The notes under the pieces were generated by a model. The model was not told the DNA's origin and searched no databases. It saw only the letters and a list, made by a program, of their open reading frames with translations. 17,390 nt of DNA. Origin: Candidatus Aenigmatarchaeota archaeon. GTDB taxonomy: Archaea; Aenigmatarchaeota; Aenigmatarchaeia; QMZP01. Position 1 is the first letter of the stretch, and every line of letters starts with the position of its first letter. The stretch is from contig JAVZYR010000014.1 of assembly GCA_038999435.1 (NCBI GenBank), positions 1 to 17,390 of the forward strand, read 5' to 3'. This document shows positions 1,544 through 15,730 of this stretch, piece after piece. Made by a program: the position numbers and the translations under genes.

Positions 1544-3102
1544 TATTTTGGGCAGATAAACTTGGCAAACAAGTAATTGAAAGAGAGAATAAGTTAAAAA
1601 GAACAAAGATTTTAAGGGTAGAGTCAGGTATTGGTGCCTCGGGTATCCCCCATCTCGGCTCTGCCTCAGATGCAGTGCGTGCATGGGCAGTATGTCTTGC
1701 GATAAGAGACCAAGGTAAGAATTCAGAACTCATTGCTTTTTCTGATGACAGAGACGGATTAAGAAAGGTTCCATCTGGATTTCCAACAACATTGAAATCT
1801 GAAATTGGAAAGCCTGTGAGCCTAATAAAAGATCCTTTCTCATGCCATGCAAGCTATAGCGAGCATATGTCAAGCCTGCTCATCGATGCACTTGATAGGC
1901 TTGGAATTGAATACAAATTTCAATCAGGAAATGTTGCATATGCTAAAGGGATGTTAGACAAACAGATAGACCTTGCATTAAAAAATTCAGATAGCATAAA
2001 AAAGGTGATCAAGGACATGCTCGGACAAGAGCTTGTAACTGTCTTTTTTCCTATATGTCAAAGATGTGAAAGGATATACACAACAAGGGTCACAGGTTAT
2101 GAAAATGGAAAGATAATCTATTCATGTGATGGTGAATTTGAAGGAAAGGTTGAAGGCAAGCCATTGATTGTTAAAGGCTGTGGATATAAGGGAGAGTGTA
2201 CAACGAAAGATGGAAAGCTTGCATGGAAGGTTGAGTTTGCAGCCCGATGGGCAGCACTGAAGATATGCTTTGAGGCATATGGCAAGGACATTGCAGATTC
2301 TGTGAGGGTAAATGATTGGGTAAGTAAGAATATATTTGGATGGGAACCACCAATACATGCGCAGTATGAACTTTTCTTGCAAAAGAGTGGGGCAAAGATA
2401 TCTAAATCTGTTGGAAATGTCATAACACCTCAGCAATGGCTTACATGTGCATCACCACAATCACTAAATCTCCTCTTCTACAAAAGATTTGTTGGAACGA
2501 GGGAGATAGATCTGTCGTCAATACCTGTTTATATGGATGAGGTTGACAGGCTCGAACGTATATGGTTTGGTGAAGAAAAGGTGCAAAATGAAAGAGAACT
2601 TGCACATCTGAAAAGGCTCTTCGAATACATAAACTATCTTAACCCGCCAAAAAAGCCGCATATACACATTGCATATCACATACTTGCAAACATTGCAAGG
2701 ATCACACAAAACAAAGAGATTATAAGGCAGATACTTATTGACATGGGAAAGATAGAACCTGGCAAAGAAAGCCAAGATGTTGAAAAGAGGATTGAATGGG
2801 TGATAAATTGGATTGGAAAACAGGAAAAAGAGAAAGTGAAGATAGGCAGCGCTGAAGCTGTCCCGCTTTTCATGCTTGCGGAATGGCTTGAGAAAGAAAG
2901 GTCTGCAGAAGAGATACAAGGAAAGATATTCGAGCTGGCAAAAAGCCATGGCATACAACCACCAAAACTTTTCGAACTTGTATATGCAATACTTCTCGGC
3001 TCAACACGAGGGCCAAGAGCAGGAAAACTCATAAAGATACTTGGTTGCAAAAAGGTTTCTGAGGAAATTAAAAAGGCATTGAGTGGGCCCGCTGGGATTT
3101 GA
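1540..3102 (+). CDS. lysS: Lysine--tRNA ligase, class I
   Basis: FWAD start, SGIGASGIPHLGS (HIGH-like), DDRDGLRKVP, PICQRC, KLAWKVEFAARW, EAYGKD, KISKSVGN (KMSKS-like), C-terminal GPRAG. Confidence 0.96.
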   Translation: MIFWADKLGKQVIERENKLKRTKILRVESGIGASGIPHLGSASDAVRAWAVCLAIRDQGKNSELIAFSDDRDGLRKVPSGFPTTLKSEIGKPVSLIKDPFSCHASYSEHMSSLLIDALDRLGIEYKFQSGNVAYAKGMLDKQIDLALKNSDSIKKVIKDMLGQELVTVFFPICQRCERIYTTRVTGYENGKIIYSCDGEFEGKVEGKPLIVKGCGYKGECTTKDGKLAWKVEFAARWAALKICFEAYGKDIADSVRVNDWVSKNIFGWEPPIHAQYELFLQKSGAKISKSVGNVITPQQWLTCASPQSLNLLFYKRFVGTREIDLSSIPVYMDEVDRLERIWFGEEKVQNERELAHLKRLFEYINYLNPPKKPHIHIAYHILANIARITQNKEIIRQILIDMGKIEPGKESQDVEKRIEWVINWIGKQEKEKVKIGSAEAVPLFMLAEWLEKERSAEEIQGKIFELAKSHGIQPPKLFELVYAILLGSTRGPRAGKLIKILGCKKVSEEIKKALSGPAGI

Positions 3103-3158
3103 ACCCAGGTCGGCAGCACCCCAAGCTGCAATGCTAGACCAAGCTACACCACGGGCCC
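3084..3158 (-). tRNA. tRNA-Pro(GGG), intronless, CCA not encoded
   Basis: Reverse complement folds as GGGCCCG acceptor / D arm / GCAGC-TTGGGGT-GCTGC / CTGGG-TTCAAAT-CCCAG / CGGGCCC-A. Confidence 0.95.
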
Positions 3159-3959
3159 AAAAAGCCTTCTGCAAAACCTTTGTTCTTTTTTGAAATCCGA
3201 TTCTGTTGGTGCACTTCTATCTACTTTAGCTACTGTTTCAAGCAGCACATATCTACAATTGCTGTTTTTTATAATGGTTACAAGCCTTTCTATATCAAGT
3301 TGGCCTTCACCAAGAACAAGATGGTCTATAGGCCTTCCAGTTAGAATGCAGTCATGAAAATGTATAGCTTCTATCCTATTTTTATGCATCTTAAACCACT
3401 CATCAACATTATAATCCTTTTTTTGAATCCATCTTACAATCACTGCATGACCAATATCAAGGCATATTTTTTCTATTTTGTTAAAATGTTCTGGAAGGCC
3501 CATAAATAGACATGGATTGTTTTCGATAATTATGTTTATTTTATGCTTTTTCCCAAGCCTTTTTAGCCTATTCAATGCATAAAGAGCATATTTATCTGAT
3601 TTTCTTTTTATCTCCTCAAATCTATATGTTGGTATATGATTTAAGATATGAGCATTGTAATAGTATGGCTCAAGCCCTGATATCGATTCTATCGATTCTC
3701 TCATAACCTCAAGGCTAGCATTTCTTATCTCAGAAATAGGGCTTGCTATATCCATTCCAGCCCATGGTGCGTGGAATGCATAGCCAAGCCCAAATCTTTG
3801 TGCATTTGTGTGAATGCTTTCTGTTTTCTTAAATATATGAATTGGATAGTCAAGCGAGAGCTCAAAATAATCAAAGCCAAGATGTGAAACTCTTGATATA
3901 GCCCTCTCTAACCCAAGCCTCCTTATGTCCCCATACCATACAGGTATGCCTAATTTCAT
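3144..3959 (-). CDS. Sugar phosphate isomerase/epimerase / AP endonuclease 2 family TIM-barrel metalloprotein
   Basis: GFDYFEL, FHAP, IIIEN, CLDIGHA, IHFHD, DHLVLGEG and LLE motifs. The true start is probably ATG 3959 (MKLGIPV); the longer ORF to 4058 runs into tRNA-Arg. Confidence 0.85.
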   Translation of the reverse strand: MKLGIPVWYGDIRRLGLERAISRVSHLGFDYFELSLDYPIHIFKKTESIHTNAQRFGLGYAFHAPWAGMDIASPISEIRNASLEVMRESIESISGLEPYYYNAHILNHIPTYRFEEIKRKSDKYALYALNRLKRLGKKHKINIIIENNPCLFMGLPEHFNKIEKICLDIGHAVIVRWIQKKDYNVDEWFKMHKNRIEAIHFHDCILTGRPIDHLVLGEGQLDIERLVTIIKNSNCRYVLLETVAKVDRSAPTESDFKKEQRFCRRLFGPVV

Positions 3960-3974
3960 ATGGGCCCGGAGGGA

Positions 3975-4137
3975 TTCTCTCTGGAAACCCTCAAGGTTTC
4001 CAGCCATCCGGGAGCTGTTTCGCTTCGCTCCACAACGCTTCCGGAAGCGTGCCCGCAAGCGCTTTCTTCTTGAAAGGTTTTGGAAGCGGTCAGCTTCTTC
4101 TTTCCGCGAGCGCTTTCTTCTTGAAAGAAAGGGCTCA
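3975..4137 (-). other. 163-nt T-loop (59/60) intron of tRNA-Arg
   Basis: Interrupts TTCGAA^TCCCTC. Ends AGAG-AA, which partly pairs with TTCG, followed by a bulge. Multi-hairpin and GC-rich. The exact splice register is inferred from BHB geometry. Confidence 0.8.
4053..4127 (-). repeat. 24-nt direct repeat pair (23/24 identical) separated by 27 nt, inside the tRNA-Arg T-loop intron
   Basis: CTTTCAAGAAGAAAGCGCTCGCGG (4127-4104) and CTTTCAAGAAGAAAGCGCTTGCGG (4076-4053). Confidence 0.9.
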
Positions 4138-4159
4138 TTCGAACCCTCGACCCCCGGCT

Positions 4160-4192
4160 TTCTTCATTTTTATCAGCTCTTCTAAGAAGACT
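4160..4192 (-). ncRNA. 33-nt canonical 37/38 intron of tRNA-Arg; candidate minimal box C'/D' methylation guide
   Basis: BHB geometry: CTTC (32-35) pairs with intron GAAG; bulges TA^A and AA^A. Contains CTTAGAAGA-G-CTGA-TAAAA-ATGAAGA. The intron call is firm; the guide function is inferred. Confidence 0.6.
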
Positions 4193-4215
4193 TAGAAGAC
4201 CGGTGCTCTATCCAA

Positions 4216-4243
4216 TTGCTTGCCCTTTTATTTAAAAAGGGCT
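4216..4243 (-). other. 28-nt D-loop (15/16) intron of tRNA-Arg
   Basis: GCTC-AG^A-[GCCCTTTT TAAAT AAAAGGGC]-AAGC-AA^T: relaxed bulge-helix-bulge with an 8-bp intron hairpin. Confidence 0.85.
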
Positions 4244-4263
4244 CTGAGCTACGGGCCCATATC

Positions 4264-11964: not shown

Positions 11965-12066
11965 TTTTAGCATCTACACATTTGAAACAATGTCTTATGA
12001 TTTACAAATCCACTGATTATTTAATGTAAATTTTAACATAATAAATTATATGGGCCCGTAGCTCAG

Positions 12067-12105
12067 TGCTGTCACACCTTTCAATAAAAAGTGTGACGCG
12101 AGCAT
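12067..12105 (+). other. 39-nt D-loop (15/16) intron of tRNA-Ile
   Basis: GCTC-AG^T-[GC T GTCACAC...GTGTGAC GC]-GAGC-AT^T: perfect 4-bp central helix with two 3-nt bulges. Confidence 0.88.
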
Positions 12106-12149
12106 TGGTTAGAGCAACGGTCTTATAAGCCGTGGGTCGAGGGTTCGAA

Positions 12150-12261
12150 TGAGCCCTTTCTTTCAAGAAGAAAGCGCTCGCGGGCACGCTTCCGGAAGCG
12201 TTGTGGAGCGAAGCGGAACAGCTCCCGGACGGCTGGAAACCTTGAGGGTTTCCAGAGAGAA
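12150..12261 (+). other. 112-nt T-loop (59/60) intron of tRNA-Ile
   Basis: Interrupts TTCGAA^TCCCTC. 110/112 identical to the tRNA-Arg T-loop intron apart from a 51-nt indel. Four hairpins. Confidence 0.8.
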
Positions 12262-12275
12262 TCCCTCCGGGCCCA

Positions 12276-14536: not shown

Positions 14537-15730
14537 TTATAACCATATCTTTATAACATCAAGTTTTAATGGTTTTGCAGACATGCCTAAAATAGATGAA
14601 ACGGATGGGGTTGTTCGGCCACCATCGCCTGTTATCATTTCCTTTACATAAAGGCCTGCCTGTGCCCTTATCACAAGTTCGAATCTTCTTTTTCCAATAA
14701 TTCTCCATTTAACATCTTTAACATATCTTTCCCTTATTATATCAGGTCTTCTTTTCAGCACCCTCTTCGGTGTTCTTTGTCTTATTCTATTTAACTTTGT
14801 CAGCCTTTTGAGAATCTTGCTATCAATTTCTTTATCTGTTTCGATAATTGCCCTATAGCTTTTATCAGGCTGTAAAGTCTTTATTTTAACAATATCTGAC
14901 CTGTCACAAAATCTCAAGGCACTGACCTTAATCTTTTTTGATTTATTTATCTCATTTCTCAACACGGCAAGCGATATACTTCTCTTTACTGGTTTTTTTA
15001 TCTCGAGCACAAACGGCCTTCCTGTAAGACATCTTACATCTATATCTTCTCTACCCATGCCATGAAAGTATGTCTTTTTACCCTTTGTCATCCTCAAAGC
15101 TGGCCTTGATAAAATCGATTGAATGGATTGTCTGTAACCCTCTTTTTCTGTTTGAGGTATGCCTGACACAAGCTTTTTATACATACCATAAATATAGAGA
15201 GGTTGTGGCTCTATGTCGATTCTTCCCTTATCATACATCATAAGCAGATCAGGTCTTCTCTCATCAGCCTTCTTTCCTGTTTTCTTTTCTATCGCTTTTC
15301 CAAGTTCTCTGTTTAGCTCCAATTTTATCGGTTCGTACCATTCTATACCAGCTGCCTTTATTACCTTATCCTCATTTTCAAGAATATTTTGCGATATCTT
15401 ACTCCCTACAACAAAAGTATGATATTCAAATCTCTTTGCCTTTGACAGCATATCTTTGGCGATATCATCAATTCTTTCAAAAAGATTACCACAAACAAAG
15501 CATTTTACTTTCTCTGCTTTTTCTACCTTAGATCTAAATTTGAATCCGATTAAATTCTCAATTTTTATATGAAATGGCCTTGCTTCGTATTCAAGAGCAA
15601 GAACTGTCCTTATGGCCCGTCCCCTTTCTGCATTGCTCAGGCCTGTGAGAAGTTGTGCAAAAAGCCTTCCAAGGCAATTATCGCATAGATAGTATCTTCT
15701 GAGTATCCTCTTTGCTCTTTCGCATATCAT
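14537..15730 (-). CDS. pus10: tRNA pseudouridine(54/55) synthase Pus10
   Basis: LCDNCLGR and CFVC zinc motifs, FHGMGREDIDVR catalytic Asp motif, QRTPKRV, GLYVKEMITGDGGRTTPS. Confidence 0.95.
   Translation of the reverse strand: MICERAKRILRRYYLCDNCLGRLFAQLLTGLSNAERGRAIRTVLALEYEARPFHIKIENLIGFKFRSKVEKAEKVKCFVCGNLFERIDDIAKDMLSKAKRFEYHTFVVGSKISQNILENEDKVIKAAGIEWYEPIKLELNRELGKAIEKKTGKKADERRPDLLMMYDKGRIDIEPQPLYIYGMYKKLVSGIPQTEKEGYRQSIQSILSRPALRMTKGKKTYFHGMGREDIDVRCLTGRPFVLEIKKPVKRSISLAVLRNEINKSKKIKVSALRFCDRSDIVKIKTLQPDKSYRAIIETDKEIDSKILKRLTKLNRIRQRTPKRVLKRRPDIIRERYVKDVKWRIIGKRRFELVIRAQAGLYVKEMITGDGGRTTPSVSSILGMSAKPLKLDVIKIWL

Follow-up and report, generated by a model that had tools for sequence, protein, structure and literature searches.

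The contig JAVZYR010000014.1 of a Candidatus Aenigmatarchaeota archaeon (assembly GCA_038999435.1), analysed over its full 17,390 nucleotides (nt) and called the window below, carries genes for tRNA-Arg(UCU) and tRNA-Ile(UAU) that are both interrupted in the T-loop, between tRNA positions 59 and 60, by long, strongly structured inserts (Table 1). It is contig C14 of an assembly (G000) of 549 kb in 30 contigs, 86% complete and with a GC content of ~38%, and its sequence is present in four hot-spring metagenome DNA runs of a single study. The inserts very probably represent a recently proliferated family of archaeal introns, predicted to be spliced at 59/60 through a relaxed bulge-helix-loop (hBH/BHL) motif. 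The family is built from repeated hairpin modules that recur in other tRNA genes and in the 23S rRNA gene of the same genome.

Table 1. Interrupted tRNA genes of the window and their inserts.
Feature	Positions	Strand	Evidence
tRNA-Arg(UCU) gene, three inserts	3961..4258	-	acceptor/T-arm scan; ARAGORN cloverleaf of 75 nt, anticodon TCT, once inserts are removed
tRNA-Arg T-loop (59/60) intron, 163 nt	3975..4137	-	modules A, L, truncated A, D, then tail AGAGAGAA
51-nt block, in the Arg insert and not in the Ile insert	4057..4107	-	MAFFT gap columns; module map
tRNA-Arg canonical 37/38 intron, 33 nt	4160..4192	-	ARAGORN intron call
tRNA-Arg D-loop insert, 27 nt	4217..4243	-	in-silico removal and ARAGORN; absent from the G001 ortholog
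tRNA-Ile(UAU) gene, two inserts	12052..12275	+	scan; ARAGORN cloverleaf of 74 nt, anticodon TAT, once inserts are removed
tRNA-Ile D-loop insert, 38 nt	12067..12104	+	in-silico removal and ARAGORN
tRNA-Ile T-loop (59/60) intron, 112 nt	12150..12261	+	module A 12151-12183, module D 12194-12253, tail 12254-12261

The initial annotation of this DNA, made from the letters alone, described two 59/60 inserts that differ by one 51-nt indel, otherwise agree at 110 of 112 positions and are GC-rich in an AT-rich genome. The coordinates, the alignment and the composition are all confirmed. Two of the 112 aligned positions differ and one gap of 51 columns separates the two (MAFFT), whilst GC contents of 53% and 58% compare with 38% for the window. 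Both inserts have TTCGAA on one side and TCCCTC of the T-arm on the other. The Arg insert folds at -72.4 kcal/mol (z = -3.25 against shuffles) and the Ile insert, in which three local hairpins are formed, at -59 kcal/mol (z = -3.41). Standard finders, it had been suggested, may overlook the two genes, and they do: from the window, ARAGORN and the Rfam tRNA model (gathering score) return only tRNA-Pro(GGG) at 3084-3158, missing both Arg and Ile. Rfam, applied to the window at the gathering score and to three intron-bearing loci at E up to 1, gave no match to an intron; its matches were tRNA-Pro(GGG) and two weak sub-threshold ones, none of them in a family intron. The T-loop inserts thus match no covariance model of a group I or group II self-splicing intron, or of another Rfam family, within that search. 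Several features had escaped the first inspection, namely the D-loop insert of tRNA-Ile, the D-loop insert and 37/38 intron of tRNA-Arg, and the larger modular family to which the T-loop inserts belong.

When compared with the whole assembly by BLAST, the 112-nt insert gave 18 clustered loci on 10 contigs, and chance resemblance is excluded because the same sequence recurs so often in a 549-kb genome. The host genes were catalogued with a purpose-made scan that looks for a T-arm together with a GC-rich acceptor stem and allows a T-loop insert and any distance to the 5′ end; this census misses tRNA genes with other T-arm layouts. A looser acceptor/T-arm scan, with 316 candidates, was too permissive and was replaced by the tightened version. 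The anticodons of Ser(GGA), Ser(UGA), Val(UAC), Val(GAC), Lys(UUU), Gln(UUG), the initiator Met and Ile(GAU) were typed by eye, and anticodon calls obtained by cutting out D-region segments by brute force before running ARAGORN are noisy. The census comprises 34 complete tRNA genes, 25 of which carry a 59/60 insert of 11-306 nt, and two further tRNA genes end at contig ends inside a T-loop insert. On the whole of G000, ARAGORN with its intron option finds 10 tRNA genes only, several of them mis-folded, and Infernal gives 16 matches, all contained in the census. Standard tools thus recover about one-third of the tRNA genes of this genome, and tRNA counts and completeness estimates are therefore misleading for such lineages.

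Each family intron carries no gene and consists of a chain of GC-rich hairpin modules. The 5′ end is formed by module A, a 33-nt hairpin with 25 copies, and the 3′ end by module D, a 60-nt unit with 15 copies that is followed by AGAGAGAA; between these are placed units of module L (12 copies), module H (a hairpin with variable loops, 5 copies) and module E (4 copies). The 51-nt block that distinguishes the Arg from the Ile insert is one extra module pair, running from the end of A through L and a linker to a second, truncated A. Module number and order differ freely between genes. Family modules are present in 18 T-loop inserts (17 in complete genes and one in a truncated gene). They are found as well in two D-loop inserts, those of tRNA-Val(UAC) and tRNA-Val(GAC), and in the 23S rRNA gene, within an insert of ~205 nt. 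With module coverage set at 60% or more, A, L, H, D and E give 61 BLAST matches, every one of them within a tRNA or rRNA gene; each module mapped at half its length or more has the orientation of its host gene. The proposal of a single large non-autonomous element therefore holds as regards a shared, non-autonomous sequence located exactly at 59/60, whereas the single element gives way to a mosaic of modules. The initial annotation also asked whether a BLAST search would place it only at T-loops of tRNA genes; its modules are confined to tRNA and rRNA genes and include the two D-loops and the 23S rRNA.

Not all interruptions of these genes are of this kind. Short T-loop inserts of 11-19 nt without family modules are also present, and other introns are filled by modules of a second family, F1-F3. 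Modules F1-F3 also make up the two ends of contig C16 (1-250 and 13780-13963); one end is a truncated T-loop intron of tRNA-Gly(UCC), and the other runs into AT-rich DNA with no visible tRNA exon. The 23S rRNA insert (C8, rRNA at 1-714 and 1156-2756, locus L035) is located at a conserved rRNA site, between GAACTGAAA and CATCTTAG, and its ends can pair over ~10 bp. The inserts in the 16S rRNA gene of G000 belong to a third family; they are of 33 nt and 121 nt, the latter with two copies of another repeat.

Splicing of the T-loop inserts is predicted from the structure of the precursors. When the inserts are deleted in silico, the exons join into complete cloverleaves for both tRNAs (ARAGORN). 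Each of the 25 T-loop inserts offers, at intron positions -6 to -3, a partner for tRNA positions 54-57; three pairs can form in 17 inserts and four in 8, as against a mean of 1.73 for other stretches of the same introns. The pair between position 57 and intron position -6 covaries (A-U in 5, G-C in 2 and G-U in 1). This register leaves beside the T stem a 3-nt bulge, made up of two intron nucleotides (N, N) and, beyond the splice site, U60. The relaxed hBH/BHL motif can thereby form, with an exon helix, a 3-nt bulge at the 3′ site, a short central helix and a looped 5′ site, and constraining the fold to this register costs 2.4 kcal/mol over the minimum in both genes and leaves all intron hairpins unchanged. 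The strict hBHBh′ motif is absent: in both genes the central helix combines three pairs with a G-A mismatch, and the 5′ splice site faces a multi-hairpin loop rather than a helix of the two intron ends. The geometry of the 59/60 junction would be equivalent to the one that a 37/38 intron has within the anticodon arm.

In the proposed pathway, the T stem of the precursor would serve as the exon helix, and U54-R57 would pair with the four intron bases preceding the last two. The 3′ splice site would then lie in the 3-nt bulge (A and A before the cut, U60 after it) and the 5′ splice site after A58-A59, immediately before the first intron hairpin. An endonuclease of the epsilon2 type would cut both sites and RtcB would join the exons, restoring a 7-nt T-loop and freeing the intron; the predicted junction is GGTTCGAA joined to TCCCTCC in both tRNA-Arg(UCU) and tRNA-Ile(UAU). 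Candidates for both proteins are encoded. A 174-residue EndA fragment (C7:3-527, locus L032) can be aligned over its whole length with residues 219-387 of PDB 4FZ2 (E = 4e-55), and the splicing endonuclease of G000 is, judging from these C-terminal 174 residues, of the epsilon2 (ARMAN-2) type. RtcB is found with 568 bits. Removal by the host splicing endonuclease, as suggested in the initial annotation, thus gains an enzyme of a type that cuts at 59/60, excision itself being predicted.

Both tRNAs are needed. A second, intron-less Arg(UCU) or Ile(UAU) gene, which the initial annotation named, together with the lack of a spliced product, as counting against its reading, was found neither among the 34 complete census genes nor among the 16 Infernal matches. 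AGA accounts for 44% of Arg codons and AUA for 54% of Ile codons in 199 open reading frames (ORFs) of at least 300 codons. The alternative AUA decoder, a tRNA with an agmatidine-modified CAU anticodon, requires TiaS. No match to the TiaS domain (PF08489) was obtained from the assembly, which is 86% complete; as it does encode a tRNA-Ile(UAU), AUA is probably read by the UAU anticodon.

Recent copying is indicated by comparisons within the genome and with a relative. Among the 11 inserts that contain both A and D (55 pairs), mean identity is 95.5% over the first 34 nt and 97.1% over the last 68 nt, as against 61.5% over the 20 exon bases upstream and 66.7% over the 13 exon bases downstream in the same pairs. 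The introns of tRNA-Ser(UGA) and tRNA-Thr(UGU) are identical at 117 of 117 positions, whilst their exon flanks are 60-69% identical, and the 13 D modules located in 13 different tRNAs have a mean column identity of 98%. In a genome of the same genus (G001, 71% complete), the syntenic tRNA-Arg(UCU) gene, whose flanks match on both sides, has an uninterrupted T-loop (GGTTCGAATCC), an intact D-loop and, as its only intron, a homologue of the 33-nt 37/38 intron. Nineteen G001 tRNAs could be typed, 15 of which have a partner of the same anticodon in the census; in 8 of these 15 pairs (Thr CGU, Arg CCU, Ala GGC, Cys GCA, Arg UCU, Thr UGU, initiator Met and Gln UUG) a T-loop insert is present in G000 and none in G001. 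Family copies differ from one another by 0-9%, compared with an identity of 64-75% for coding DNA that flanks the genes in G000 and G001. The suggestion that the element has spread among tRNA genes is upheld by similarity that ends at the splice sites and by the empty site of G001. The family would accordingly have been copied recently, as a unit, into many T-loops; its 5′ units are found in two D-loop introns and the 23S rRNA insert as well. Module number would then have drifted through unequal recombination or slippage, as is suggested because it varies in tandem.

A number of observations weigh against this reading. The central helix has only three pairs in 17 of the 25 inserts, including both in the window, and at minimum energy the folds adopt a different, shifted register in which the bulge is of 1 nt. 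A contig end truncates the EndA gene, so that its N-terminal half and specificity loop are missing from the fragment, and the runs that contain the locus are four DNA runs; spliced junctions, cleavage sites and circles are thus predicted only. The comparison with G001 is biased, because only its Infernal-detectable tRNAs were compared, its Ile(UAU) locus falls in an assembly gap, and intron loss in G001 may be an alternative to gain in G000. The Arg and Ile genes have identical 3′ exons and are 80% identical over 20 upstream bases, and for this pair alone a larger conversion tract would explain the sequences as well as movement of the intron only. All four exon-intron junctions of the two genes are confirmed by public contigs of the four runs, which reach 13-15 nt into the inserts from the four exon sides (to 3989, 4125, 12163 and 12247). 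These contigs stop short of spanning the introns, and the module counts are therefore those of one assembly.

Searches of other genomes distinguish the complete family from its 5′ hairpin. Against 40 relatives, a BLAST search with the 112-nt intron returned nothing but hairpin-A-like matches in the rRNA genes of G012. With a covariance model built for module D, 15 copies are detected in G000, whereas 90 further genomes of the order yield nothing at E below 0.001, three weak matches in two genomes (E = 0.003-0.006) being treated as chance; an exact 25-mer of module D has 0 matches in a genome contig collection, and two scans of a viral contig collection gave 0 matches. On these sequence comparisons, the family is specific to the G000 species among the genomes searched. 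In metagenome contigs a module-A pattern occurs at 2 loci only; one was dismissed as a chance match in a coding region, and the other was taken for a Ruminococcaceae contig already matched in the genome contig collection. The number of tRNAs detectable by Infernal is low in most genomes of the order, at 5-23 in 21 of 24 relatives, with 23 in G001, 30 in G029 and 47 in G002 (a genome of the same family, in 6 contigs). Heavy tRNA interruption is therefore a trait of the lineage, and the module family is not.

A covariance model of hairpin A behaves differently from that of module D: it finds 26 copies in G000 and, at E up to 0.001, matches in 18 of the 90 others from the order, with more than one copy in several of these; G001 has no match. 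The context of the best match was inspected in 12 of the 18. The hairpin heads T-loop 59/60 introns in three other genera (G022, G026 and G063), and is found in a D-arm insert of G027, in 16S and 23S rRNA (G020 and G090) and in intergenic-looking DNA, of which G034 (below) is one case. It is possible, if rather doubtful, that module A belongs to an order-wide and perhaps multi-phylum family of small mobile hairpins, of which a copy landing in a structured RNA gene would create a spliceable intron. If so, the T-loop family would be a live case of the birth of protein-less archaeal introns, followed by copying of whole introns between T-loops.

Several isolated occurrences of related hairpins were noted. 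In G034 (L089, C4:60290-60318) a hairpin unit lies in intergenic-looking DNA with the 12-nt repeat AGAATTAAAAGG on both sides; this pair looks like a target-site duplication and would, if it is one, argue for mobility of the hairpin unit at the DNA level. Near-identical module-A sequence of 30-44 nt opens anticodon-loop (37/38) introns of 111 and 125 nt in tRNA-Leu and tRNA-Ala of an Altiarchaeota metagenome-assembled genome (MAG; L038) and another archaeal MAG (L039). In a Thermoplasmatales MAG (L036), such a near-identical sequence constitutes both ends of an inverted-repeat element. Hairpin-A-like 16S inserts are located at the same site in G012 (L041, L043) and G020 (L087), with a further insert in the 23S of G012. 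These rRNA inserts are bounded by a direct repeat of 7-8 nt (TTTCGCG), and the 16S insert is antisense to the rRNA in G012 and, by its flanks, also in G020, as far as a near-palindromic hairpin permits. In G000 itself, two tandem weak relatives of module A (C17:6229-6321; L099 630-722) lie in frame at the start of a 231-residue ORF, in which the hairpin units are followed by a pilin-like signal (RGQTT and a hydrophobic stretch). From the sequence, the repeat seems to have lengthened the cleaved leader peptide of this pilin-like ORF.

The same data can be read in other ways. The introns might be old at each site and homogenised by gene conversion, with no new insertions, in which case the intact T-loops of G001 would be precise losses. 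Such a history would fit the 59/60 inserts of 25 of the 34 genes, short module-free ones among them, the related 5′ hairpin that heads T-loop introns in three other genera, and the heavy tRNA interruption of most relatives. It is nevertheless judged unlikely, given the uninterrupted G001 T-loops in 8 of 15 anticodon-matched pairs, the 47 detectable tRNAs of G002 and copies that are so much closer to one another than is the flanking coding DNA of the two congeners; many precise losses are also hard to explain without a reverse transcriptase. That the inserts might be retained, leaving either repeat-disrupted pseudogenes or tRNAs with a giant T-loop expansion, is scarcely credible. Splicing is indeed inferred, the runs with the locus being of DNA only, and standard detectors do reject both genes. 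Their exons, however, are intact and complementary, no second copy of either gene was found, and the Arg and Ile codons in heaviest use are read by these two tRNAs. Retention would moreover leave 25 of 34 tRNA genes dead, and from established tRNA structure a T-loop insert of 112-306 nt would be expected to destroy the elbow formed by the D-loop and T-loop. It is barely conceivable that a collapsed or chimeric repeat was placed in the tRNA genes by the assembler. The contigs of G000 and of the public runs do tend to end at the module repeats; against this, the sequences to the two sides of the insert are in every gene complementary in the acceptor stem and in the T stem, and contigs of the four runs enter the inserts independently from all four exon sides.

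Two further possibilities concern the excised RNA. The initial annotation raised a function for the excised circle, and the intron or some of its modules might have been kept because they serve as a guide, as a scaffold for proteins or as a stable circle. Strongly structured, GC-rich inserts in an AT-rich genome and a module-A-like hairpin heading introns in distant archaea are what such a role would lead one to expect. The absence of an Rfam match even at E up to 1, the restriction of module D to G000 within the order at E below 0.001, the free variation of module number and order, with copies too alike for covariation, and the lack of properly spaced C/D boxes in module E by eye make it quite improbable. 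The reading of module E as a C/D box or K-loop was set aside for this reason of spacing, CTGA and TGATG being present. The other possibility is that an excised intron is religated into another pre-tRNA, by reverse splicing or mis-ligation by RtcB, then reverse-transcribed and recombined into the gene. Similarity bounded by splice sites would follow from such a cycle, as would copies that are all co-oriented with the host RNA and never outside stable RNA genes. Reverse splicing, which had been among the routes first proposed, is not supported, as no reverse transcriptase domain (RVT_1) is matched in the 86%-complete assembly. An intron-less T-loop gives the endonuclease no site to cleave, and the related hairpin units in the pilin-like leader and in intergenic-looking DNA are left unexplained, so that RNA-mediated copying is highly improbable.

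Copying at the DNA level is tentatively favoured, at somewhat less than even odds, because no reverse transcriptase was found and module number varies in tandem, and also because related hairpin units occur in non-RNA contexts. The conserved T-arm would be the anchor, and candidate routes would be gene conversion guided by microhomology or template switching, with subsequent selection for inserts that can be spliced. The tests made here do not directly separate DNA-level from RNA-level copying, and this counts against the preference. A review of 2014 (PMC4090602, in excerpt) describes the copying mechanism of such introns as unknown and supposes it to act on DNA. The whole intron lacks the marks of a small DNA transposon. 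Its junctions share only 2-4 nt (GAAT, AAT or AA), which is no fixed target-site duplication, and a duplication model was rejected: hosts with TTCAAA keep the same 3′ junction, AGAGAGAA followed by T, as hosts with TTCGAA, and the 3′ GAA therefore moves with the intron and is not a copy of the target. No terminal inverted repeats were found between the two ends of the Ile T-loop intron, and the occurrence in either orientation and any context that marks a miniature inverted-repeat transposable element (MITE) is not seen among the 61 co-oriented module matches in RNA genes.

A close known counterpart is found in ARMAN-2 (Candidatus Micrarchaeum acidiphilum), whose epsilon2 endonuclease, according to excerpts of PMC3239211 (Fujishima et al. 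2011) and PMC12397907, cut in vitro a 13-nt hBH intron at 59/60 of pre-tRNA-Cys(GCA); its structure is 4FZ2 (PMC3488258). The two systems share the intron position, the type of enzyme and the relaxed hBH/BHL geometry, in which the exon helix is the T stem; both hosts have a small DPANN-type genome with many interrupted tRNAs. They differ in that the ARMAN-2 example is 13 nt, whereas the inserts of G000 are of 112-306 nt and consist of repeated modules, and in that the host is Aenigmatarchaeota-like. Excerpts of a 2018 account (PMC5829648) give the epsilon2 type as known only from Micrarchaeum and Mancarchaeum; on the present evidence it appears to extend beyond Micrarchaeota. The introns of G000 also resemble the transposed tRNA introns of Thermoproteales, in which near-identical introns occupy different tRNAs and more than one position and recent gain by copying is implied. 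Those introns are short, of some tens of nucleotides. The units of G000 are, in contrast, long, modular and tandemly variable, occur also in 23S rRNA, and have a syntenic empty site in a congener. The Thermoproteales case was described by Fujishima et al. (2010, Mol Biol Evol 27:2233), as summarised in PMC4090602 and PMC3239211.

Two other kinds of element bear comparison. Protein-less bulge-helix-bulge (BHB) introns occur in archaeal rRNA genes, for example in the 16S genes of Thermoproteales, and the ~205-nt 23S insert of G000 is likewise located at a conserved rRNA site, but shares sequence with tRNA introns. MITEs and the palindromic elements of Rickettsia are small palindromic repeats that survive in tolerated sites. 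In common with these, units related to module A are multi-copy in relatives within the order, some of them outside RNA genes; one has 12-nt direct repeats and a related pair is translated in a pilin-like leader. The whole intron, unlike such elements, lacks terminal inverted repeats and a consistent target duplication and, in G000, is never reversed or outside tRNA and rRNA genes. Introns of the BHL type at 59/60 and intron transposition are thus known already, and what is new is the size, the modular build, the near-saturation of T-loops and the sharing with rRNA; no description of modular, repeat-built T-loop introns was found in the literature searched, subscription journals being outside its scope.

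How protein-spliced archaeal introns arrive at new sites is a standing question which this genome can help to study, and the route of arrival is still called open in a 2026 preprint on Asgard tRNAs (10.64898/2026.10.13.758758, abstract). Features rarely combined in one genome are found together here: about 20 near-identical copies, boundaries limited to the intron, a syntenic empty site, variable module numbers, a known broad-specificity type of endonuclease and no reverse transcriptase found. The module repeats also have a practical consequence, as they fragment assemblies at tRNA and rRNA loci.

In the window, the tRNA-Arg and tRNA-Ile genes have housekeeping genes as neighbours; neither an integrase nor a transposase is found among these. 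At 3144-4058 (minus strand), the longest ORF of a protein with the AP-endonuclease-2 fold overruns the 3′ end of the tRNA-Arg gene and part of the intron; its Pfam match begins at residue 56, so the true start is probably further downstream, and gene callers may over-extend this gene. A Pus10 gene lies at 14537-15730 (minus strand), and its product is presumably the archaeal tRNA pseudouridine 54/55 synthase, which acts on the T-loop. Elsewhere in the two congeners, the 37/38 intron of tRNA-Tyr(GUA) holds CTGA, ATGATGA and CTGA (G000 C6:17057-17155; G001 C103:2310-2406), motifs that look like the C/D-box elements known from the tRNA-Trp intron of euryarchaea.

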